64,000 nt of DNA. Source: Bacteriovoracia bacterium. Its GTDB lineage: Bacteria; Bdellovibrionota; UBA1018; CAIPTA01. Within the stretch, counting starts at the first letter, position 1; each line of letters opens with the position of its first letter. The translations under genes were made by a program, and so were the position numbers. The notes below the pieces were generated by a model that saw nothing but the letters and a program-made list of their open reading frames with translations, searched no databases and had not been told where the DNA came from. Location of the stretch: positions 1 through 64,000 of the forward strand of contig JBFWVL010000001.1 in the NCBI GenBank assembly GCA_050246755.1. The letters are read 5' to 3'. Of this stretch, positions 26,603 through 37,713 are shown one piece after another.

Positions 26603-27574
26603 CTATTTTTGACAAATCGTATAATCGGAACTCAAGCTGTCGTTCCTGGGATTAAATCTCTTAGTAGAAAACTCCGCGCCGAGAATAACCATTCTCCCAC
26701 GGCCATTCATGCCGCGATAAGAGGCCGAGATAATGGCCTCCGGCCCGAGCGCTACCGCGATAGGGTTTCCGAACTGCCAGTACTTACTCCGAATCAAGCT
26801 GTCGTTCTTAAACTCCCCCACTTTGAGGCCGAGACTTCCGCAAACGGACTCCGCCCTTTCCGGCTGATCCACTCCGTCCAAATTATCGTCTACCTTCACG
26901 AATAACCATTTTTCCGGGTAGCTAAAGGTCCAGAAATTTTGCAATCCCGCCCTCCCCCGAAGCGCCGCATATTCGGGCTCCTTCAGCTGAAGCAGCGCCG
27001 CCGCGCTGAGGTAAGAATTAAAGTACCGGGCACGAATCGAATTCACCTGGCCGCGCTCCAGCGTGTCGGTATAAATGATCTCGTGGAGCATCAGCGAAGC
27101 CTGGTCGCGCACCGACATGCGATTCCAGATAGTGGCGTCGATCAGGTAGAATCTCTCCTCGGGAAATTGCGGTTTACGCTGGATCGCCACCTGCCGCAGC
27201 TCGCAGTTTCTCGGAATCACGATGTGATTAGAATCGGGCACGTCCACGAGATTCGCGTCGGGCACGAAACCGGCATTCTCCCGGAAGGCATCCACTTTCT
27301 TGCCATAATTTTTGGCGGACACAGGGTCGAATTTTGCCATGCGCGCCAAAATATTTTTCGCCGTCTCCTCGGCCGTGGCTCCGGTTAAAGACTGGTCGAA
27401 CTCAAGCCCGCGCAGCACGCGCGCTTCGTAGAGATCGAGCATCTCCACGCTGCCATCGGCGCAGACCAGGGCGTCTCCGCCATTCCCGACTCCATCTCCT
27501 CCGGCCTGCAACGGCGCCAATCCCGCACGCGCCTCAAAGCTTGCTAGCAATAGTAAGCAAAAGAATAGTTTCAT
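26603..27574 (-). CDS. secreted GGxxVGNGG-motif protein
   Basis: Signal peptide then AGGDGVGNGGDALVC, LDLYE, LMLHEIIY. Confidence 0.8.
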   Translation of the reverse strand: MKLFFCLLLLASFEARAGLAPLQAGGDGVGNGGDALVCADGSVEMLDLYEARVLRGLEFDQSLTGATAEETAKNILARMAKFDPVSAKNYGKKVDAFRENAGFVPDANLVDVPDSNHIVIPRNCELRQVAIQRKPQFPEERFYLIDATIWNRMSVRDQASLMLHEIIYTDTLERGQVNSIRARYFNSYLSAAALLQLKEPEYAALRGRAGLQNFWTFSYPEKWLFVKVDDNLDGVDQPERAESVCGSLGLKVGEFKNDSLIRSKYWQFGNPIAVALGPEAIISASYRGMNGRGRMVILGAEFSTKRFNPRNDSLSSDYTICQK

Positions 27575-28338
27575 TTTTGCGCTCCTTTGGAATCTTTATT
27601 TTCTAAAATCACCGGGAACAACTGAATGCCGAGCGTATACACTTCGTCGGCGTCGCCGTTTTCGAGCAGGCCGATCAGCTCGTCCTGAAAGCGCCGGATC
27701 GCCGCCTTCGCCTTGGGCAAGTTCTTCGTGTTCACGGCCGCCGTCTTGGTAAAAAACTCCCGCCGCTCCACGGCCACATTTTCCAATGCCAGCTCCGCGC
27801 GCTTTAGGTTCTGCCGGTGGTGGTTACGGATCGCGTTCGAGGGAATATCGTTCGTGGTGCTCAAAGGCTTCGAAGTACGCCGTAAGCGCCCCCGAGACAC
27901 TTCCAGCAACTCCATCCTTACCAGCCGCTCCAAGGCCGTAGCGGCCACGATCACCGGAATCCCTAGCCGCTTCGAGATCCAGGCCGGTTCGGCCTTATTG
28001 GAAATTTTCGCCAAATTTAGGATCGCGAAATAATACCAGTCGGCGATCAAGCGAAATTCATCTTCCCTAAGCAGCCGCGGGCGGGCCTGATCGTCGCTCA
28101 CGCGGGGCGAATCCCAGCGGAGCTTCTCCACTTCCATCGGGGAAAGCCCGAGCTTTGCGGCCACCAGCTCGAGATTTTTGCGCGAGAGCTGGCGCTTGCC
28201 GGCAATCGTGAGGCTCAGCGAAGCGGGGCTCACGCTCAGATCCCGGGCCATGGCCCGCAAGGAATACCCGGGATTCGCCGCCTGGCAATCCGCCAGGTGC
28301 TGCCTCAAGATCTCGGTGATCGTTGTTTTCTCGCCCAT
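27571..28338 (-). CDS. TIGR02147/DUF4423-type XRE-like HTH regulator
   Basis: NPGYSLRAMARDLSVSPASLS, IADWYYFAIL, AIRNHHRQNL, VYTLGIQLFP. Confidence 0.85.
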   Translation of the reverse strand: MGEKTTITEILRQHLADCQAANPGYSLRAMARDLSVSPASLSLTIAGKRQLSRKNLELVAAKLGLSPMEVEKLRWDSPRVSDDQARPRLLREDEFRLIADWYYFAILNLAKISNKAEPAWISKRLGIPVIVAATALERLVRMELLEVSRGRLRRTSKPLSTTNDIPSNAIRNHHRQNLKRAELALENVAVERREFFTKTAAVNTKNLPKAKAAIRRFQDELIGLLENGDADEVYTLGIQLFPVILENKDSKGAQK

Positions 28339-28429: not shown

Positions 28430-28462
28430 AAAAAACTCCAAGCCTTTTGGCTTAGGTTTTTT
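28430..28462. terminator. intrinsic terminator at the island edge
   Basis: A-run, AAGCC-tttt-GGCTT hairpin, T-run. Confidence 0.6.
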
Positions 28463-28472
28463 AATTATAGCC

Positions 28473-28673
28473 TTACCGAAAAAGCCTTCTTAATCTGGTA
28501 ACGTACTGACTCAAATGCCTAAGCACATCTGGCGGCAAGTGAGCCAGCCCCTTGCTTACATGCACCATAGCGGCCTCGAGTTGTTCAATTCTTGCCTCCA
28601 ATTCGTTAATTTGACGCTTAAGCGCCCTAATTTCAGAATCGCTCACTCTAGACCCCCTTAAATTTACTAACAA
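28473..28673 (-). CDS. small coiled-coil hypothetical protein
   Basis: EIRALKRQINELEARIEQLEAAM heptads; start uncertain. Confidence 0.55.
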   Translation of the reverse strand: MLVNLRGSRVSDSEIRALKRQINELEARIEQLEAAMVHVSKGLAHLPPDVLRHLSQYVTRLRRLFR

Positions 28674-28690
28674 TGCCTAAGATCACAACC

Positions 28691-29209
28691 TTAGCGGGTG
28701 CGGAAAATTTTAAGTGAATGCGCGGTTTGATCCTGGACAAGGAAAGCCATTTGTTCGTTATTATTTGCGGCAGCGTCTATTAGTCTTCCAGATATCCCAA
28801 ATTGATTGTCATAGGGTCCCTGAACCAATACCTTATCGACGGTGTCATAAACAAACAGTCCCTTGCCTCCACCCCCTGGGTTCGGACCGCTACCTTCGTA
28901 GGTGCCCAAAAAGTATATGTTGCCTGAATCACTTAGGCGGAAGCCTCTACAAAAATCTGCAGAAGCGCCAACGGTACTCCTGAGATCTTGCTCGACGCCG
29001 TCTTTGTCAATGAACCATGGGCGCGAGCCGTGGCAAATAGCCATCTCCCCTTTGGAGTTGAGTTCAAATTCCAGGCTGCCAATAAAGTGATTTTGGAGCC
29101 AGAGCCCATTAGTGAATTCTTTTGGAGCCCTGGCGAAAGCTTGACTGATTAAGAAAATTTGCGAGATTAGGCAAAACGATACCGTAAGCAGCTTTAGCTG
29201 TAATTTCAT
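28691..29209 (-). CDS. hypothetical secreted beta-rich protein
   Basis: AGGA RBS; signal peptide ending AFA. Confidence 0.7.
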   Translation of the reverse strand: MKLQLKLLTVSFCLISQIFLISQAFARAPKEFTNGLWLQNHFIGSLEFELNSKGEMAICHGSRPWFIDKDGVEQDLRSTVGASADFCRGFRLSDSGNIYFLGTYEGSGPNPGGGGKGLFVYDTVDKVLVQGPYDNQFGISGRLIDAAANNNEQMAFLVQDQTAHSLKIFRTR

Positions 29210-29221
29210 TGGTAGTTCCTT

Positions 29222-29965
29222 TTATCGTATAAATTGAATTGAGTTAATGATTGCAGCCGCTTCACTAGCCGTTTGCCCATCGTGTTTAGAAAGTACGCCA
29301 GGACTAGCTTTAACTACGTTAGTCGAAACCACCACCATTCGAAGTCCTCCGCTGATGGAAACAGCTTCATGCTGAAACATGCAAGTATCCGGAAAACTTT
29401 GAATAAGAGCGCGCACAGAAAACTGAATTCCGGACAGCATCGAATTTTCGCCAAAAGCAAATGGGATCCTTCGATAACGAACACCCAATTCAACATGGTC
29501 CACGTTAGGCTCTTTGCCGGTATATTTAGACCAATCGCCTTCTTTATTCGGTCTCACACGAATTATGATTTTACTGCACCATTCTCCACCCACCTCAGAG
29601 CCCGGTTTACCCGCAACTTTGCAAGCATCTGTAACTGGCATTAAATTTAAGGTGTTATCGGGATATTCTTCCTCTTCATCCGAAGGGACTACTTTCCACG
29701 ATTTTGGAAATTTTACCTTGGCACCGTAGCTTGCACCCTTAGGTGACAGCGTCGCAGATTCGGTTAGAGCGCTATCTGGTGTAGGCTCTTTAACTTTCCA
29801 GAAGTAATTAGGAAATTTTCCAGACAGTGATTGTGTGTCCGGGCAAGCTGCGACAGGTAGCGATTCCTTTTTCTGCTTTGATGCAGAGAAAGCGGCATTG
29901 GGAGATGCCATGCCGACGCTCAGCGTCACGAGCGCTGGCAGCATTAGTAAAATATGCTTCTGCAT
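29222..29965 (-). CDS. hypothetical secreted protein
   Basis: Probable start MQKHILLMLPALVTLSVGMA; ORF open further upstream to 30052. Confidence 0.65.
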   Translation of the reverse strand: MQKHILLMLPALVTLSVGMASPNAAFSASKQKKESLPVAACPDTQSLSGKFPNYFWKVKEPTPDSALTESATLSPKGASYGAKVKFPKSWKVVPSDEEEEYPDNTLNLMPVTDACKVAGKPGSEVGGEWCSKIIIRVRPNKEGDWSKYTGKEPNVDHVELGVRYRRIPFAFGENSMLSGIQFSVRALIQSFPDTCMFQHEAVSISGGLRMVVVSTNVVKASPGVLSKHDGQTASEAAAIINSIQFIR

Positions 29966-30219
29966 CGAAGTCACAAACTTTACACTGGTGGAATTGGAGT
30001 AGAAATCGCAGCGAGAAAAACGCATCCGTGGTCCTCTAAGGGCCGAATCCAATCAGCCTTAAATATACAATACGAGAAGGCTAATGGCCGTCGTCCACTA
30101 GCTGCAAGTACTTTTCCGTTACACTAAAATTTATATCAACCACAGTCACGCTAAAACAGTAATCGCATTTTTTGCAAACTAAATTCTTACCTATTTGATT
30201 TTTTATTTGGGAGCTATGC

Positions 30220-30713
30220 TGACCAGCCGGGAGTTTTTGTACCACTCCTAGAGTTTAACTGCGGCCAAAACTCTTCGGAAATCTTGCTCGAAAGCTAAAG
30301 GGGCCGGTGGCCTGTAGCCAAGCGCGCTGTGCGGCCTCTTCGTATTGTAATGCCTTCTCCATTGTTCAATTATAACCTTCGCCTCCAGTAGCGAGAAGAA
30401 GATTTCTCCGTTCAAAAACTCATAGCGCATCTTCCCGTTAAATGACTCGCAATAACCATTCTCCCACGGGCTTCCCGGAAAAATAAATAGTGGCTTTACA
30501 TCCAACGCCTTCAGCCACCAACGCAATTTCGTTGCCACAAATTCAGGGCCGTTATCAGAACGAATATGCTTTGGGACTCCTCGCTTTAGAAATAAATCGG
30601 CCAGCGCCTGAATCACATCTCCCGAACGAATTCTTCTCGCTACGATCGAGGCCAAACATTCTCGTGAGTATTCGTCGATGATATTTAAAATTCTGAATTT
30701 TCTTCCGTCATGC
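30220..30713 (-). pseudogene. truncated IS3-family element (integrase core + IR only)
   Basis: DGRKFRILNIIDEYSREC, RSDNGPEF, SPWENGYCESFN, RPHSALGY; end TGACCAGCCGGGAG at 30220; cut off by the neighbouring IS at 30714. Confidence 0.85.
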
Positions 30714-31958
30714 TGACCATCCTCCCAAAAACCTAGCCATTTGAAAGCTCTAAAAAACCGGGTATAACACGCCCGGCCGTAAGGCCGGGAGACCTGGGAG
30801 TAGAGCAAATGAAGAAGTCGAATTTCAAAGAAGAGGACATCGTAAGAATTCTTGGCCAAGCCGCAGCGGGAAAAGTACGGCCGAGATCTGCCGGGAAAAT
30901 AAAATCTCAAGCTACACATTTTATTCGTGGCGCAGGAAATTTTCCGGCATGGATGTGAAGGAAGCCAAGCGCCTGCGTGATCTCGAAAGCGAGAACGCGC
31001 GTTTGAAGCGCCTGGTGGCCGATCAGGCCCTCGACATCACGGTTTTAAAGGACGCGCTTGGAAAAAAGTAAGAAGGCCTTCTGAAAGAAAAACCTTGGCC
31101 CGTGCCGCGATTGAGCGGTTCGGGCTGAAACATCGACGGGCCTGCCGGATTTTTGAGATCAATCGCTTCACCTGGCACTACACGCCGCAACCTGATCGCA
31201 ACGTGAAGCTGCGCCAGCGAATGCGTGAGCTCGCGGCACAGAATCCGGTTTACGGCCACCCAATGCTTTTTTATCTCGTAAGGCGCGAGTGGCCGTACCC
31301 GATCAATCACAAGCGCACGGAGAAAATCTATAGGGAAGAAGGCCTTTCACTCAGGAGAAAGCGGAAGCGAAAAAAGTGGCGGCAATTGCGCCTGGCGCTT
31401 CCGCCCGCGATGGATCAAGAATACGTTTGGTCGATGGATTTTGTGCACGATCGCCTGGCCAATAATCAGCAGCTGAAGTTTCTCACGATGGTGGATCACG
31501 CTACGCGAACTGTGCCCGATCTTTACGCTGCCAAATCCATCAAAGGAACCGACGTAGTGGGAGTTCTCGAGCGGCTTAAGCTGCAAAACCGCAAGCCGAA
31601 AATCTTGGTCGTGGACAATGGGCCCGAGTTTCGCTCCAAAGCGCTTCAAGAATGGACTACGAGTAACCAGGTTCGCCTTCCCTTCATCGAACCGGGCAAG
31701 CCTTACCAAAACGGCTTCATCGAATCGTTCAACGGGAGATTTCGCGCCGAATGCCTCGATCGAAATGTATTCGTGAACGTGGATGCGGCAAGGATTTTTG
31801 CGCGAGGATGGAAGAATGAATACGAATCACAGCGGCCACACTCAAGTTTGCGAGGCCTTACGCCGAATGAATTTGCAGAACGAACAATGCGTGCTAAACA
31901 CGCCAACCAAAGCCCCGGTCTAGAGCTAATAAGTGGCTAGGAACAAGGGGGATGGTCA
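30714..31958 (+). mobile_element. IS3-family element, orfA inactivated
   Basis: IRs TGACCATCCTCCC...CCTAGCCA / TGGCTAGG...GGGGGATGGTCA; orfA 30809-31071 has an extra frameshift near 30870; A6G slippery site at 31062-31068; orfB to 31940 with WSMDF, DNGPEF, ESFN. Confidence 0.9.
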
Positions 31959-32005
31959 GGACGAAAACAACAGAAGACCTAAAAGAACTGCCCTCATTTT
32001 TATCA

Positions 32006-32518
32006 CTATGGCCGCTTCTTTTTCTTGGAGCATTGAGCAATCTCTAAAACCTCGTCCATGCTCTTTCCTTGAGAATATGCTTCGATTGCAGAAATTCTAC
32101 AGCGAATATAAGACGACTCGCCTTTAATACGATCTGGATAAGGCAATATACCGAAAGATCCACTTTCAACGTTGGCCAAGTTTCCCGAAGAGTTCATGAG
32201 GAACATTATAAGAAACGAGCCTACATTTTCTATGCTCGAAGGTGCATCCTTTTTATTTCCATTACGCTTGCTATGAAAGTAGGCAAAGCGTTGATTGTTT
32301 TTTTCTCCCTTAAAACTTCTAACTACCTCAAACTCTACACGCGTATCTGCTCCATTCCCATTTACAGAAGGTAGCCTTTCTACTTGCTTTACCTTTCCAA
32401 CAAAAATATTGTCGGATTTTTCGAGACTATCTTTAAGAGACATAACCGGTACTTCGCCCGTTGTGGCAAAAGCGAGACTGGAAACTATTAATAAAAGGCC
32501 TACGCCCACTTTAGTCAC
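32006..32518 (-). CDS. small secreted TIMP/NTR-like (OB-fold) protein, paralog 1
   Basis: Signal peptide; LEKSDNIFVGKV...FEVVRSFKG. Confidence 0.7.
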   Translation of the reverse strand: MTKVGVGLLLIVSSLAFATTGEVPVMSLKDSLEKSDNIFVGKVKQVERLPSVNGNGADTRVEFEVVRSFKGEKNNQRFAYFHSKRNGNKKDAPSSIENVGSFLIMFLMNSSGNLANVESGSFGILPYPDRIKGESSYIRCRISAIEAYSQGKSMDEVLEIAQCSKKKKRP

Positions 32519-33036
32519 TACGGCCGCTTCTTCTTTTTGTAACAGTAGGAAATCTCTAAAACCTCATCCATGCTTTTTTTCTGTGAATACGCCTCTAATG
32601 CCGAGATGGCACATCGCAGAGAGCTACTAAATTCTCCAGCAGCATCAGGGAAAGGTGGAATAAGAGTTGAACCGCTCTCGGTATTTACACGCCCCCCTAA
32701 AGATCCATTAGTGAAAATAATAAAGAAAGATCCAACATTCTCAATTGAAACGGGAGCATCCTTTTCATTGCCACTACGGGTACTATAAAAATATACGACC
32801 TGTGGGTTTTTCTTTTTTCCCTTGAAGCTTTTAATCACTTCGATCTCGGCGCGCATATCCGAACCATCTGCTTTTAGCGAAGACAATTTCTCGACTTTCT
32901 TTACTTTGCCAATAAAGATGTCGTCGGACTTCTCAAGCCTGTCTTTAAGGGGCATCACCGGAATTTCTCCCGTTGTGGCAAGAGCCAAACCAGAGAAAAT
33001 CAATGAAATGCAAAGAAATACCGTTATTCTACCCAT
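32518..33036 (-). CDS. small secreted TIMP/NTR-like protein, paralog 2
   Basis: LEKSDDIFIGKV...IEVIKSFKG; close tandem paralog of 32006-32518. Confidence 0.7.
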   Translation of the reverse strand: MGRITVFLCISLIFSGLALATTGEIPVMPLKDRLEKSDDIFIGKVKKVEKLSSLKADGSDMRAEIEVIKSFKGKKKNPQVVYFYSTRSGNEKDAPVSIENVGSFFIIFTNGSLGGRVNTESGSTLIPPFPDAAGEFSSSLRCAISALEAYSQKKSMDEVLEISYCYKKKKRP

Positions 33037-33592
33037 ACTGGAATCTCCATAAAGGTTCCTACTTCACGCTGCAACGAAACAAGCTTTTCATTCAGCAACT
33101 GAATTCTATTAATTGTATCCGCGATCAAAGCGTTAAGTCGCTCTATTTCTTCCGGATCAGTCTCTAATTTTAGCTGCCGTTCGTAAGCATTTTTCCTAGC
33201 TTCTTCTTCGTTAATGGCCGCCGTAAACCCACTTGCCGCACGTTTATTCCGAATATACGTGTGAGCACGCCAATTATGTATGCCCGGGCTTAAGCGTATA
33301 GAGTTTGCTCGCCACCGACTACCGGGTGCGTCTTCTAACGTCTTTTGCGACTGACCGTCAAGCTTAAGGGAAACAACGAATTCAAGCTCTTGGTTCTCAG
33401 GAAAATTAATTGCGTGCGCAACGAGTTGCGATCGTTCACCCGTTGCATAAGAATATTTATCCAGAGCGACTTCAATAAAAGCATTTCGCGGATTTGGAAT
33501 TATTTCCATCAAGGCTTGCCGTTTCGCTAAAACAGAATCGATTACTTGAAGCACGGCTTCTCTAGTAAATTCCAGCGGCGTAGTCGGTTGAT
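33024..33592 (-). pseudogene. 5'-truncated homolog of 36095-37051 (Ig-like + coiled coil)
   Basis: Frame stays open upstream of GTG 33554 (HQPTTPLEFTREAVL, cf. EPLEYEQEQVL) up to the tRNA-end repeat at 33593. Confidence 0.7.
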
Positions 33593-33604
33593 GTGGTGCT
33601 CACA
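33593..33604 (-). repeat. 12-bp copy of the tRNA-Leu 3' end (att-like scar)
   Basis: GTGGTGCTCACA identical to 37628-37639 and 37334-37345, same orientation. Confidence 0.65.
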
Positions 33605-33775
33605 ATTTACTCTTCGGTGAATCTTTTGCGCTTCATATCTTGCCTTTCTTTTTTTCAAGAAAAGAAGACTTTGTCACGCCGCTTCGAACATTTACTTTGG
33701 TACAGTTTCACCCACCAACGTCAAATGGAGCTAAAAATTTCATTCATTATTCTTAAGTGACCGATAAACTAACGG

Positions 33776-34234
33776 CTATGGCTTAATGCTTTTCAGCTTT
33801 TTAAGTTCTTCCCCGACATCACTAAATTTAATATTCCCACCGCCCATCGCTTGAGAAGTATAATTCCTATTGTTCAATTTTTTTGCATAGAAAAGAATTT
33901 CAGACTTATTCTTTGCTGCTCCTCGCATGCTATTGCCAGTATCGGGATTACAAACATCAAAAGAATCTTTAGGCTTACGATAGAAAACATCAACCATACT
34001 GCCTGACTTGCCTTTGCCTTTTAAAATAATCGTGACTTTTACTTTAACTTTTCTACTAAACTCAGGGGTCTTATCTGTTGTGTCTACATCTTCGGTAGGA
34101 ACGCCCACAAAAATAAAATCGGCGCTTTTAAAGCGCTCTTCAAGAGTGGGCATAGGAAATGTGCAAGTTAATCCAAATGCAGTGTTAGAAAAAACCAGCC
34201 AAATCGCACAAATTAGTGGAGCTAAAAATTTCAT
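33776..34234 (-). CDS. small secreted TIMP/NTR-like protein, paralog 3
   Basis: Signal peptide; TCTFPMPTLEERFKSADFIFVG...VKVKVTIILKG. Confidence 0.72.
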   Translation of the reverse strand: MKFLAPLICAIWLVFSNTAFGLTCTFPMPTLEERFKSADFIFVGVPTEDVDTTDKTPEFSRKVKVKVTIILKGKGKSGSMVDVFYRKPKDSFDVCNPDTGNSMRGAAKNKSEILFYAKKLNNRNYTSQAMGGGNIKFSDVGEELKKLKSIKP

Positions 34235-34299
34235 TCGTTGTTCCCTGCTAGTTTACGATTAAATCGACATTAATAAGACTACCAACAACAGTGCGATTT

Positions 34300-35535
34300 T
34301 GACCGGCTCCCCAAAACTCTACCAAAACCAATGTTAGTTTTCGGGCCTCAAACAGCCTTCTTCTGGGATATTTTTTCCAACCACTCCGCCGGCGCAAGAT
34401 TTCCTAGCGAACGATGTGGCCTCCAATTATTGTATTCGATTCTCCAATTTTCGATAACCTCTTTTGCCTCGTCTAAACTTAAAAACGTATTTGCGTTTAA
34501 GCATTCATCCCGAAGCCTTCCGTTAAAGCTGTCGATAAATGCGTTTTCCGTCGGCTTACCAGGTCGGATGAAGTGGATTTTCACGCTATTTTCAAATGCC
34601 CAGCGGTCTAATTCCTTTGAGGCGAACTCCGTTCCGTTATCCACAATCAGCGTCGCGGGCTTCGATCCTAGCTTCGCCAGAGCCGACAACACTTCCGTTA
34701 CTGCGCTCGAAGTCCACCCAGCCCTCGCCTCGAGCCGGGGGCTAACTCTGCTAAAGCTATCTACTATCGTTAAAATCCGAAATTTCTTTCCATCAATTGT
34801 CTGATCATGCACAAAGTCCATGCTCCAGCATTCGTTTGGAGCTGTTGGTTGTTCGGGTTTCACGCGCTTTGCTGCAGAGATTTTCTTGCGGCGCTTAGTC
34901 TTCACGCAGAGGCCTTCTTCTTTATATAGCCTTCGAAGTCTTTTTAAATTCATTTTGATGCCTTGCCTTGCCATCAGCACATGAATTCTCCGATATCCGT
35001 ATCTTGGACGTGCTTCTGCTAAATCTCGTATCTTGATTTTTAGATCCGACTCATCTTTTCTTACCGACCGATAGCGGTGGCCTGAGCGATCTATTTGCGC
35101 GAGCCCGCAGGCGCGCCTTTGGCTCGTATTAAAGGCATGGAGAAGGAATTCAACTATCTTTCTCCTCTTAGCGGGCGTTAGAACTTTTTTCTCAAGACCT
35201 CTTGAAGCATCTGCTTGTCGAGCATTAGATCTGCCACGATCGCTTTTAATTTTCGGTTCTCTTCTTCCACCTGGCGCATGCGCCGAAGCTCGGAAACATC
35301 CATCCCATGAAATTTCTTCTTCCAGCGATGAAAAGTGACTTCCGTAATTCCTAGCTTGCGACAAACCTCTTTGATCGGAGTACCTGACTCCGCTTCGCGA
35401 AGCGTCCGCACGATCTGCTCTTCCGAAAAATTCTTTCTGGGCATTCATTCCTCCTCCTTTTTTCGTATCAGGAGAAGGCCGCTTGGAGCGCCGCTTCTTA
35501 CATGAATTTTGGCTTAGTTTCTGGGGCTACCGTCA
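34300..35535 (-). mobile_element. IS3-family element, apparently intact
   Basis: IRs TGACGGTAGCCCCAGAAAC / TGACCGGCTCCCCAAAAC; orfA 35444-35178; A6G -1 frameshift site at 35184-35190; orfB to 34348 with WSMDF, DNGTEF, RPHRSLG. Confidence 0.92.
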
Positions 35536-35562
35536 AAATTTGTTATACTCTCATCGGTTTAG

Positions 35563-36105
35563 TTATAGGCGAAGCAAACCGGGAATTGATTCTAGGCAAG
35601 CCCTTTTTTCGCTACTCTTCATTTTTTCGCATTCTTTTTTCCGCTCTTCCGCTTGGCGCTTTCTAACTTCTATAAACCGCCGACCAAGCTCCTCGTCCGT
35701 ACCTGGCGTTTTTGTTACTTCATCAAAAATTTCAATATCTCTTACAGCATCAATAACGGGTAACGGGAAACTTTGTCGGTACGGTTCACTCTTCCCTCTA
35801 ATGGAAAATAAGTAGTCTTTTCCTATCTCTGGAATAAACTTAGGACCTCGATTTCTCACATAAACCGTGAGTTGAATACCCGGCTCACCCCGATAGACTT
35901 TGCCTACCCTTACGGTGACCTTGTGATCCCTCTCATATGCATCAAATTTACTTAAATCTAAAGAATCAACTCGCCCCACAAAAACAAATGTACTCTTTAA
36001 AAAATCTTTCCCTGTTCCAGGAATCTCTTCAGCCTTCGCCCAAATTGGGCTAGAAGAACTCACGATAAGAAATATGAATAGGGAAAAAACCGACTTAGTT
36101 AACAA
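35563..36105 (-). CDS. small secreted TIMP/NTR-like protein, paralog 4
   Basis: Probable TTG start at 36105 overlapping the upstream stop; FLKSTFVFVGRV...VRVGKVYRG...IGKDYLF. Confidence 0.65.
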   Translation of the reverse strand: MLTKSVFSLFIFLIVSSSSPIWAKAEEIPGTGKDFLKSTFVFVGRVDSLDLSKFDAYERDHKVTVRVGKVYRGEPGIQLTVYVRNRGPKFIPEIGKDYLFSIRGKSEPYRQSFPLPVIDAVRDIEIFDEVTKTPGTDEELGRRFIEVRKRQAEERKKECEKMKSSEKRACLESIPGLLRL

Positions 36106-37051
36106 AAATTTGATTAATTGCTTCGACGGATACAAGAGTCCTCCCAGCATTCAGTTGAATTTTTAGATCTTGAATTCTATTTAAAAGCATTATGTTCCTA
36201 TCAGTAATTATACCAATTTCTTGAGGATCTGTCTCGCGCTCCAGTCTCTTATTATTTGCCAGCACTTCGCCCTCAGATGCCACTATTCCTTGTTCTATAC
36301 TTTTTGCCCATCTGGAATTTTGCACATAGGCGCGAACTTCCCAAATATGGCTTCCCAGCGAAAGTGGAATACTTTTAGCCCCATAAATCCCAGAACTAAC
36401 CGCTTCAATTTTTAGGGGCGATCCATCAAAGTATGATTCCAAAAAATATTCTTGCTCCGGATTAGTCAAACTAGAAAGTACTCGCGCGCTTAAGTTTACC
36501 CTCTCTCCAACAGAAAAATTTTGCTTATTTGCAGAAAGACCGAATAATTTTTTTCTTTGATTTAGCAAAATTCCGGCAAGAACGGCCTTTATTTCACCGA
36601 GATTAAATTCAGATAAAACTTGTTCTTGCTCGTACTCTAAAGGCTCTATTTTAGAAGTTTGAACTGTATTATTCCGGATATATTTTTTGAGCTCATTTAG
36701 TTGCTTATAAGCAACGTCCCACTGATTCTTATCAAGATTTTGTTTGGCTAAATCAAGATTTGCGAGCATCGTCTCACGTCGCGCAGGTCCATTATTCGTA
36801 AACGCACGCTCAGGAAGATTTTTAATAGCAGTACGAAGAATCCGATAAATTACTGACTCTGAGTAAACTTTTATACCATTTTTAAATATCTGAAACCGTA
36901 CAATGCTTGGATCGTCAATCACCTGAACGGCAAAAGGTATCTCTTCACTACTCGCTAAACGATCCTCAGATAGGAACACAAAATAAACTAATCCGGCAAT
37001 ATCTTTTTTGGAGGCTAAAAGAGATTTAATATTCGTCCGAACTGGCTGCAT
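36095..37051 (-). CDS. hypothetical protein (helical bundle + Ig-like + coiled coil); 5' end probably eroded
   Basis: 318-aa ORF homologous to 33024-33592; upstream in-frame hydrophobic stretch IFFGIFLAALVA suggests a damaged signal peptide. Confidence 0.65.
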   Translation of the reverse strand: MQPVRTNIKSLLASKKDIAGLVYFVFLSEDRLASSEEIPFAVQVIDDPSIVRFQIFKNGIKVYSESVIYRILRTAIKNLPERAFTNNGPARRETMLANLDLAKQNLDKNQWDVAYKQLNELKKYIRNNTVQTSKIEPLEYEQEQVLSEFNLGEIKAVLAGILLNQRKKLFGLSANKQNFSVGERVNLSARVLSSLTNPEQEYFLESYFDGSPLKIEAVSSGIYGAKSIPLSLGSHIWEVRAYVQNSRWAKSIEQGIVASEGEVLANNKRLERETDPQEIGIITDRNIMLLNRIQDLKIQLNAGRTLVSVEAINQIFVN

Positions 37052-37239
37052 TGCAACTAATGCGGCGAGAAATATACCGAAAAAAATTTACTTTTTTTCC
37101 CGTGAGAAATGATGATTTCTCGCTAGGCAGAGTGGCTGGTGTTTTTTCTAAAGAAACGAAGAAAAGACCGCACGCATTAAACTCGATGCGGCGCAATTTT
37201 TCTTACACGGTGGAAGGCGGCGGTCTCCGGTCTTTTGCT

Positions 37240-37652
37240 CGCGTTCGAATTTCAGCGAACCGAGTCTCAGAAATCCCCAAATCTCCAAAGTTGAGGAGAG
37301 CGACGAAGGATTTGGGGATTTTCGGATTTCTGAGTGGTGCTCACAGAGGGACTCGCCCCACTACAGTCGAGTCTCCTGACTCTCCTTGCGTGGGCTCCCC
37401 TACGTCGCTAAGAAAAGCCTCCTGCTTTTCTTCCCCGCGCTAAATCGCCTTGCGATTCAGCGCAGGTCGCTCCTCCGCGTTCGAGTCCCGAAAATACCAA
37501 GTCTCAAACGAATAGAATTGCCCAAAGTCGAGGCGACGAGAGAGCGCAGCCGTGAGACGGGCTACTGCCCGTCGGAACGGGGCGCGAGCGAAGGCAACGA
37601 TGGATTTGGGCAATTCTATTCGTTTGAGTGGTGCTCACAGAGGGACTCGAAC
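37240..37652 (-). repeat. tRNA-anchored tandem repeat: 25-bp tRNA 3'-end duplication plus 24-bp hairpins
   Basis: TGAGTGGTGCTCACAGAGGGACTCG at 37331-37355 and 37625-37649; IR arms 37503-37526/37605-37628 (24/24) and 37266-37289/37311-37334 (21/24). Confidence 0.85.
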
Positions 37653-37713
37653 CCCCACACCTTGCGGCACTAGCTCCTAAGGCTAGCGTGTCTACCAATT
37701 CCACCATGTGAGC
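37629..37713 (-). tRNA. tRNA-Leu (anticodon TAG)
   Basis: GCTCACATGGTGGAATTGGTAGACACGCTAGCCTTAGGAGCTAGTGCCGCAAGGTGTGGGGGTTCGAGTCCCTCTGTGAGCACCA; 85 nt, long variable arm, encoded CCA. Confidence 0.96.

Follow-up and report, generated by a model that had tools for sequence, protein, structure and literature searches.

A mosaic, IS3-containing island beside a tRNA-Leu gene with divergent, putatively TIMP/NTR-like secreted proteins and decaying copies of a lineage-specific module

The DNA analysed here (the window) comprises the first 64,000 nt of contig C1 of a Bacteriovoracia bacterium genome (GenBank assembly GCA_050246755.1, contig JBFWVL010000001.1; 3.55 Mb in 10 contigs, designated G000), and this report concerns an island within it that carries four small genes, B1 to B4, and two genes, A1 and A2, that contain a sequence unit named here the A module (Table 1). 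Taken together, the data make it probable that the region is a mosaic island, riddled with insertion sequences (IS) of the IS3 family and composed of secreted-protein genes, in which the B products are binding modules of the NTR type and the A genes are decaying strays. It would correspond to the tRNA-Leu-proximal part of a variable island whose genes for small exported proteins form an array that has decayed in part. An earlier examination of the sequence (the original prediction) had described the same genes as a diversified A-B cassette, laid out like an effector/immunity or protease-inhibitor array; several of its descriptive elements are retained below, but not the cassette itself.

The six A and B genes all lie on the minus strand behind the tRNA-Leu(tag) gene, as had been noted originally. 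B3 and B4 are 63% identical (E 2e-72), and pairwise BLASTP with the signal peptides included links B1 and B2 to this pair only at E 1e-3 to 7e-6. Profiles of the subtypes made without signal peptides also match one another (hhalign 90.7-97.4%, P 1e-6 to 1e-11), with reversed sequences used as controls giving 0.5% at most, and the motifs SDxIFVGxV and KG are common to the aligned proteins. The mutual homology of four signal peptide-bearing B genes is thereby borne out. They form three subtypes (B1, B2 and B3/B4) into which their nearest relatives also sort, P0005, P0006 and P0008 falling with B3/B4 and the others as given in Table 1. Between B3 and B4, the non-synonymous divergence (dN) is 0.29 and the synonymous divergence (dS) is saturated, for a ratio of ca. 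0.14, and both genes are therefore maintained by purifying selection.

Coordinates confirm that each A gene overlaps the start of the B gene downstream of it. For A1/B1, the overlap measured from the B1 ATG to the A1 stop is 56 nt, or 41 nt with the TTG start of the database copy (P0003); it is 13 nt for A2/B3 and 1 nt for B3/B4. The presence of a small gene immediately downstream of A is a positional relation only; an A gene precedes only B1 and B3, B2 coming after an IS3 element and B4 after B3.

The affiliation of the B proteins was addressed by profile searches and modelling. Among 1.84 billion representative proteins, the four-B profile retrieved 108 at E<=1e-3, three of which are the window's own. 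A Pfam scan of 56 of the 105 others gave 14 that match TIMP, NTR or NtA at E<=0.01, including six that exceed the TIMP gathering score. The B-only profile retrieves bacterial proteins that match TIMP or carry a CxC start at E 1e-4 to 6e-7, and its remote matches mostly begin with CxC after the signal peptide, in a TIMP-like manner. When mature B profiles (signal peptides removed) were aligned with bacterial TIMP-like proteins, values of 98.5-98.6% were obtained with hhalign (P ca. 1e-15, 85-89 columns), the targets being eight bacterial proteins that either match Pfam TIMP at E<=0.01 (six above the gathering score) or have a CxC start. In a search of PDB sequences, a 100-sequence profile matched TIMP-2 (1br9, E 2.7e-10), TIMP-3, TIMP-1 and agrin NtA.

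An AF2 model of B4 built with this 100-sequence alignment (predicted local distance difference test, pLDDT, 83.4; predicted template modelling score, pTM, 0.73) points in the same direction. All 15 of its Foldseek matches at E<=1e-3 are NTR, TIMP, C345C or NtA domains, with the NTR domain of PCOLCE at the top and with TIMP-2, C3 C345C and NtA among the others (E 4e-5 to 1e-3). In VIA comparisons, the model aligns with the C345C domain of C5 at Z 11.4 (root mean square deviation, rmsd, 2.5, 115 aa) and with TIMP-1 at Z 10.1, within an overall range of Z 9.2-11.4 for 108-122 aligned residues located between model residues 22 and 155. As judged from these profiles and this model, the B proteins constitute a divergent branch of the bacterial TIMP/NTR-like superfamily with an oligonucleotide/oligosaccharide-binding (OB) fold, and the TIMP/NTR-type OB fold put forward in the original prediction is supported.

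Similarity to TIMPs does not extend to the residues on which TIMP inhibition depends. In animal TIMPs, the free amine and the carbonyl of Cys1 bind the catalytic zinc, and an N-terminal extension abolishes inhibition. The Cys1-x-Cys3 arrangement found at the mature N-terminus of TIMPs is absent from B1, B3 and B4, which have no Cys in at least the first 100 mature residues and carry 4-5 extra residues ahead of a conserved E-I/V-P segment; B2 has a single Cys ca. 3 residues past the predicted cleavage site (LTC/TFP), and a second one in the barrel. Each subtype contains one conserved Cys pair, located in the C-terminal helices for B1 and B3/B4 and linking the N-terminal segment to the barrel for B2, which fits an exported, disulfide-bonded protein. 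With their Sec-type signal peptides, the B proteins would be exported and may bind or block other extracytoplasmic proteins in a stoichiometric manner, the likeliest kind of target being a secreted hydrolase that would differ from one subtype to the next. Their mechanism would be NTR-type surface binding rather than chelation of zinc by Cys1 as in TIMPs.

It appears unlikely that the B proteins are instead true TIMP-type inhibitors of metzincins or other zinc proteases, which would shield a presumably predatory cell from secreted proteases, its own or those of a competitor, with an array of different specificities. Their homology and fold link with TIMPs would agree with such a role, as would the nature of the order to which the organism belongs, which we take to be predatory and protease-rich. 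Two A-module proteins of the same genome carry a HELGH motif and a Peptidase_C39_2 domain, respectively, and an M48 zinc peptidase is encoded in the B-bearing island of a congener (G004, see below). A pair formed by a metzincin and a TIMP-like lipoprotein has moreover been described in Listeria, but the TIMP-like protein is presented there as a substrate released by the protease and not as a shown inhibitor (PMC8235301). The N-termini of B1, B3 and B4, Cys-less and extended, argue against a TIMP mechanism of protease inhibition, and no protease gene adjoins any B gene in the window. As to the protease or toxin gene that was to be looked for upstream, the window's island has no protease gene and the A genes have no toxin domain.

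The A genes are in a different state from the B genes. A1 and A2 share 31% identity over 151 aa (E 2e-16; A1 residues 155-300 with A2 residues 12-158) in an alignment that displays GER, DG, ETDPxEI and NRIQ, so that their predicted homology holds. A gene does occur where A2 had been placed (33024-33592), but this interval is not a multiple of three, the frame being open to ca. 33593 and the start being a GTG at 33554. The PLEF motif of A2 lies upstream of this first usable start codon, and because homology extends upstream of the first possible start, A2 is regarded as a 5'-truncated remnant. It has no signal peptide, while that of A1 is at best atypical. Residues 1-62 of A1 are modelled with low confidence by AF2. 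A1 has no Pfam or NCBIfam family, and a word-indexed search of 5.8 billion proteins, limited by word sharing, returned no full-length relative other than A1 itself. The truncation of A2 and the dN/dS of B3/B4 support the earlier view that A erodes while B persists: the B genes are kept under purifying selection as the A genes decay.

Two further duplications concern these genes. The start of B2 is repeated upstream of A2 (33726..33752), where its translation reads MKFLAPFDVGG before a stop; this duplicate appears to be the scar of a further, deleted B2-type gene that was located directly upstream of A2. The second is a 252-bp segment covering the A1 upstream region and first codons, which recurs at 96.4% identity (blastn and alignment) in another A-module cluster, immediately ahead of its malectin gene. 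There, its flanks have 56-57% GC (guanine plus cytosine) and it is interrupted by an in-frame TAA. This duplicate could be either a shared regulatory region or a recombination scar between island and cluster.

The original description of A as an immunoglobulin (Ig)-like domain followed by a coiled-coil hairpin is supported by modelling. The A module, of ca. 150 aa, is a beta-sandwich into which a helical hairpin, its turn ETDP-like, is inserted ahead of the last strand. In the AF2 model of A1, pLDDT is 95-98 over residues 170-318, the hairpin spanning 246-302 with the ETDP turn and the last strand 305-317; the sandwich matches Ig and fibronectin type III (FnIII) domains at Z 10-11. A1 and A2 align with seven other copies in the genome and with 15 from relatives, with E values of 1e-54 to 2e-56 for the hidden Markov model of the module. 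The nine copies of G000 thus include seven beyond A1 and A2, which are distributed in two paralogous clusters (L013 and L014, Table 1) of secreted proteins that share the module. Similar clusters occur in four other genomes (G001, G006, G007 and G055), where all module-bearing proteins have, by eye, signal-peptide-like N-termini. Overall, the module was detected in 7 of 61 relatives' genomes, own genome included; a sample of 401 genomes from the phylum gave 16 with the module, 15 of which hold several copies. Its usual setting is a conserved cluster of large, multidomain secreted proteins. A profile search for longer A-module proteins, again limited by word sharing, returned only those of the window's genome. 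The A module is, on the evidence of this distribution, a lineage-specific family and a candidate new assembly domain. Its copies may serve in assembly or docking within secreted multiprotein clusters, from which A1 and A2 would be decaying strays; the A genes would not be effectors, and A1 joins an A module to an N-terminal half of orphan sequence.

The distribution of the two families argues against a conserved and diversified A-B module. B-type genes were found in only two of the 61 relatives, G000 itself and G004, a member of the same genus. Across the 401 phylum genomes, the B profile matched in five, and both A and B occur only in G000 and G004; outside the genus, the inspected genome, G134, has a CxC-type singleton and the other two genomes give weaker matches. 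Conversely, 14 of the 16 genomes with the A module have no B match, and inspection of four A-module clusters from other genomes revealed no B gene. The small genes downstream of other C-terminal A modules (L1_166, L2_189 and a 168-aa gene of G004) have no match to the B profile. A profile search of genome contigs with the B alignment matched only the G004 contig, and no relative emerged when metagenomes were scanned with alignments of the B1 and B3/4 types.

In G004, seven B genes of several subtypes occur in a 22-kb, low-GC island organised as a same-strand array (L045/L046, C14:29000-52800). This island also contains repeated multi-gene units that encode at least four further families of paralogous small proteins, together with an M48 peptidase gene, toxin-antitoxin-like genes including, by eye, BrnT-like and DUF4160-like genes, and repeated elements of 60-180 nt upstream of several genes. 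At the contig end lies a divergently oriented tyrosine recombinase gene of a generic type, far below every NCBIfam cut-off. The B genes of G004 follow other, unrelated small genes, and six of the seven have no A gene directly upstream, as is the case for two of the four in the window. The sole trace of A in this island is a fragment of 68 aa, comprising hairpin and strand, that immediately follows a B2-type gene. With other partners and only a fragment of A in G004, A-B is not a conserved cassette: the adjacency of A and B appears to reflect the local mosaic history of the island and not a conserved two-gene system. The co-occurrence of A and B elsewhere therefore holds for G004 alone, with its A fragment, and fails in the 14 other A-module genomes.

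Several observations nevertheless weigh against interpreting the B proteins as NTR-type modules and the A genes as strays on a mosaic island. An A gene followed by an overlapping B gene occurs twice in the window, both B-bearing genomes hold A modules, and the A fragment of G004 ends exactly at the start of a non-B gene for a small secreted protein; a functional link between the C-termini of A modules and downstream small secreted genes is possible. The closest metagenomic relatives of B (P0005-P0013) are singletons on short contigs of 0.8-21 kb. With regard to the fold, none of B1-B4 matches TIMP, NTR or NtA in Pfam at E<=1, nor were they matched by any entry of Pfam, NCBIfam or PADLOC; as they fall below the Pfam thresholds, they are considered a divergent branch of the superfamily that the curated families do not cover. 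In addition, CxC TIMP-like proteins dominated the alignment used to model B4, so that the fold match depends in part on the sequence link.

Some of these points would also suit A and B being cognate partners, the OB domain of B binding the A hairpin either as an immunity protein or antidote or as a cap that regulates A-module assembly, an explanation that we hold to be quite improbable. It could draw on the two overlapping junctions, on the A fragment lying within the G004 array and on the presence of A modules in both B-bearing genomes, as well as on the 252-bp segment, whose occurrence upstream of both A1 and an A-module cluster hints at common regulation. Several B relatives also match Pfam NtA weakly, and the TIMP-like NtA domain of agrin binds the laminin coiled coil. 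Against it stand the 14 of 16 A-module genomes without a B match and the four inspected clusters without a B gene, the lack of an A gene directly upstream of most B genes in G004 and of half of those in the window, and the absence of a toxin or enzyme domain from A. The locations of the products also agree poorly, with A2 truncated and devoid of a signal peptide and A1 having an atypical one at best, whereas B is predicted to be exported. By analogy with agrin NtA and laminin, the Cys-less B proteins might more specifically be docking or capping partners of the A-module hairpin, with mobile low-GC islands supplying interchangeable regulators or antidotes; the chances of this being so are slim. 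If true, the NTR fold would have acquired a new use in bacteria and a new assembly module would receive a first function, the docking serving the secreted A-module assemblies (malectin, PKD/IPT, peptidase) of Bdellovibrionales-type bacteria.

An array of orphan immunity genes directed against periplasm-acting toxins of competitors, with A as leftovers of toxin genes, is the most improbable of the explanations considered: such an array would recall the recombinase-associated interbacterial defence clusters of Bacteroidales and would accommodate the same-strand arrays of diverse small exported proteins on low-GC islands of two genomes, the divergent tyrosine recombinase and toxin-antitoxin-like genes of G004, the repeated upstream elements and the truncated gene pieces, but no island gene has a toxin domain or a PADLOC match, many non-toxin proteins carry the A module, a structural Ig-plus-hairpin unit, at their N- or C-terminal end, and TIMP/NTR folds are not, to our knowledge, an immunity family. 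The effector/immunity layout of the original prediction is abandoned for the same region, since Pfam, NCBIfam and PADLOC reveal no toxin or protease domain in A, whose C-terminus consists of the Ig-like sandwich and the helical hairpin. A defence-system reading in general was likewise dropped, with zero PADLOC matches.

The interpretation as a mosaic island of secreted-protein genes is consistent with the genomic setting. The island extends over ca. 9 kb (ca. 28.5-37.4 kb) with 38-46% GC, compared with 55-62% in its flanks, where core genes are located, with a DUF4423/TIGR02147 gene bordering the island at one end and those of an oligopeptide-type ATP-binding cassette (ABC) transporter at the other. 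The tRNA-Leu gene and the ABC ATPase gene are arranged syntenically in three congeneric genomes, and the tRNA-adjacent DNA is of normal GC in the single congener examined further. A degenerate copy of the tRNA 3' end lies inside the island boundary, looking like an att-type scar; the 21-nt core of this repeat has exactly two occurrences in the window, against zero expected by chance. The tRNA adjacency, the low GC and the duplicated tRNA 3' end agree with the initial proposal of an acquired island behind a tRNA gene, and the region is supported as an acquired-looking, tRNA-adjacent island.

Between A1 and the tRNA gene, positions 37266-37628 are made of two related units, each with a copy of the tRNA-Leu 3' end and a 24-nt inverted repeat; the arms are 100% complementary in one unit (37503-37526 with 37605-37628) and 88% in the other (37266-37289 with 37311-37334). 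The 275-nt spacer at 37357-37631 resembles C1:1556334-1556607 (76% identity). At the opposite edge, a small coiled-coil open reading frame (28473-28673) occurs between the DUF4423/TIGR02147 gene and the island.

Three different IS3-family transposase genes or remnants are packed within 5 kb of the island, and none recurs elsewhere in the 3.5-Mb genome (blastn, E 1e-5). The element located between B1 and B2 extends over ca. 34299-35536. No integrase gene was found in the window and general Rfam models, which include no dedicated attC model, detected no attC-like element; an integron reading was tried, and the island repeats were found to sit upstream of genes, unlike attC hairpins. Promoter and terminator scans gave site counts that were not above those of shuffled sequence, and the coverage by an RNA run was limited to 35 nt, within an IS remnant.

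Contigs from an independent metagenome (run X3) provide a variant of the same region. They carry A1-B1 with 3 differences in 1328 nt, as well as B2, and have the IS3 element (34299-35536) in the opposite orientation. Nothing in them matches 30136-33770 (A2, B3, B4 and IS remnants) at 90% or more, and ca. 1.7 kb of unmatched sequence is found in its place. Another contig, of 426 bp, connects 37169-37354 to the tRNA at 37629 through a 37-nt copy of the 28430-28466 hairpin, which stands where the window has a 274-bp spacer. Excision of the island was considered from these joints (28466 to 37629 and 37354 to 28430) and rejected, as they derive from this one contig, in which the hairpin replaces the spacer, and the short side measures only 37 nt. 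The truncation of A2, the duplicated B2 start, the three IS3 remnants, the 252-bp duplicate, the tRNA 3'-end copy and the X3 variants all indicate erosion and a composite origin; the island is mosaic and still changing.

Table 1. Coordinates of the island genes, boundary and repeat features in the window, and of the A-module clusters elsewhere on contig C1
Feature	Position	Strand	Description
A1	36095..37051	-	318 aa; orphan N-terminal half + C-terminal A module (ca. 166-318)
A2	33024..33593 (open frame); 33024-33554 from first start	-	176 aa from first start; 5'-truncated A module
B1	35563..36150	-	195 aa; signal peptide + putative TIMP/NTR-like domain, subtype 1; closest relative P0007
B2	33776..34234	-	152 aa; putative TIMP/NTR-like, subtype 2; relatives P0011, P0013, five G004 genes
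B3	32518..33036	-	172 aa; putative TIMP/NTR-like, subtype 3/4
B4	32006..32518	-	170 aa; tandem paralog of B3; the B protein modelled
Duplicate B2 start	33726..33752	-	ribosome-binding region + MKFLAP, then stops; 27-nt repeat, 93% identity
252-bp segment	36968..37219	-	A1 upstream region + first 28 codons; 40% GC; second copy C1:156921-157172
tRNA-Leu (anticodon tag)	37629..37713	-	ARAGORN; Rfam tRNA 59.3 bits; core-side island boundary
Degenerate copy of tRNA-Leu 3' end	37331..37365		35 nt; 89% direct repeat, 294 nt inside tRNA
IS3-family transposase	34348..35448	-	orfA 35178-35444 + orfB; Pfam rve, rve_3, HTH_21; between B1 and B2
IS3-family transposase remnant	31095-31940	+	orfB; Pfam rve, rve_3 (both remnants)
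IS3-family transposase remnant	30248-30919	-	orfB fragment
Two small secreted-protein genes	28691..30052	-	172 aa and 276 aa; no known family; far end of low-GC island
DUF4423/TIGR02147-family helix-turn-helix protein gene	27571-28338		Pfam E 5e-47; core-side island edge
A-module cluster L013 (outside window)	C1:148466-156872		341-aa malectin protein, module C-terminal
			169-aa stand-alone module
			959-aa PKD/IPT protein, module N-terminal
	C1:149017-152463		1148-aa protein with HELGH motif, module C-terminal
A-module cluster L014 (outside window)	C1:823058-831663		344-aa malectin protein
			1051-aa PKD/IPT/cadherin-like protein
			1299-aa protein with Peptidase_C39_2 domain

Comparison with known systems places the A module and the B proteins differently. 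For the A module, the nearest structural counterpart is formed by domains N/S of GlgE (PF11896), which also combine a beta-sandwich with an inserted helical hairpin and which were the top Foldseek match of the whole A1 model (E 3.5e-5) as well as the best Atlas structural cluster (template modelling score, TM, 0.55, 117 aa). However, the query-normalised TM is 0.26, the rmsd in Foldseek is ca. 11 A, sequence similarity is zero, and GlgE is a cytoplasmic enzyme, unlike the A module. The N/S region of GlgE forms a dimer interface, and the match is a weak lead, by analogy only, for a dimerising role of the module.

The B proteins share with the N-domain of animal TIMPs (PF00965) a secreted, five-stranded OB-type barrel with flanking helices and core motifs equivalent to xDxVFxGxV and KG, the profile link running via bacterial intermediates. 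They differ in that B1, B3 and B4 have no mature N-terminal CxC, no Pfam threshold is reached, each subtype has one disulfide-capable Cys pair instead of the three disulfides of N-TIMP, and no partner metalloprotease is known. The best structural matches of B4 are the NTR modules of C3/C5 (C345C) and PCOLCE (PF01759) and the NtA domain of agrin (PF03146), which are non-inhibitory protein-binding modules, and this fits the loss of Cys1 in B; these modules are domains of large eukaryotic proteins, whereas the B proteins are stand-alone bacterial products encoded in tandem arrays. Bacterial CxC TIMP-like proteins, members of Pfam TIMP (for example P0009, P0019, P0020 and the G134 singleton), have the size, signal peptide and core motifs of B but, unlike B, begin with CxC once the signal peptide is removed and possess the cysteines of SSASCG and LCS. 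In the one context inspected, that of G134, the gene is a singleton and not part of an array. We know of no functional characterisation of these CxC proteins.

In Listeria, the metzincin Mtz cleaves and releases the TIMP-like lipoprotein Tim, which resembles B in being an exported TIMP-fold protein encoded on mobile or phage-derived DNA directly downstream of its partner gene (PMC8235301). The upstream partner is a metzincin in that case, while here the upstream gene, where there is one, encodes an Ig-plus-hairpin module without protease motif. The authors of that study state that they found no earlier literature record of such proteins (PMC8235301), and a search of a limited body of literature for TIMP-fold proteins in Bdellovibrio-type bacteria returned nothing; bacterial TIMP-fold proteins are almost unstudied. 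The island of the window is partly decayed and does not demonstrate a new mechanism, and the A-module clusters are possibly a more promising lead than the B island, as the module marks conserved clusters of secreted proteins. What sets the B proteins apart from their known relatives is the loss of the CxC start, the array organisation and the island location. They form a divergent, cysteine-poor TIMP/NTR branch that has multiplied into arrays, carried by variable islands of two congeneric species, which suggests that the NTR fold has been recruited in these bacteria as an exchangeable extracellular binding module.

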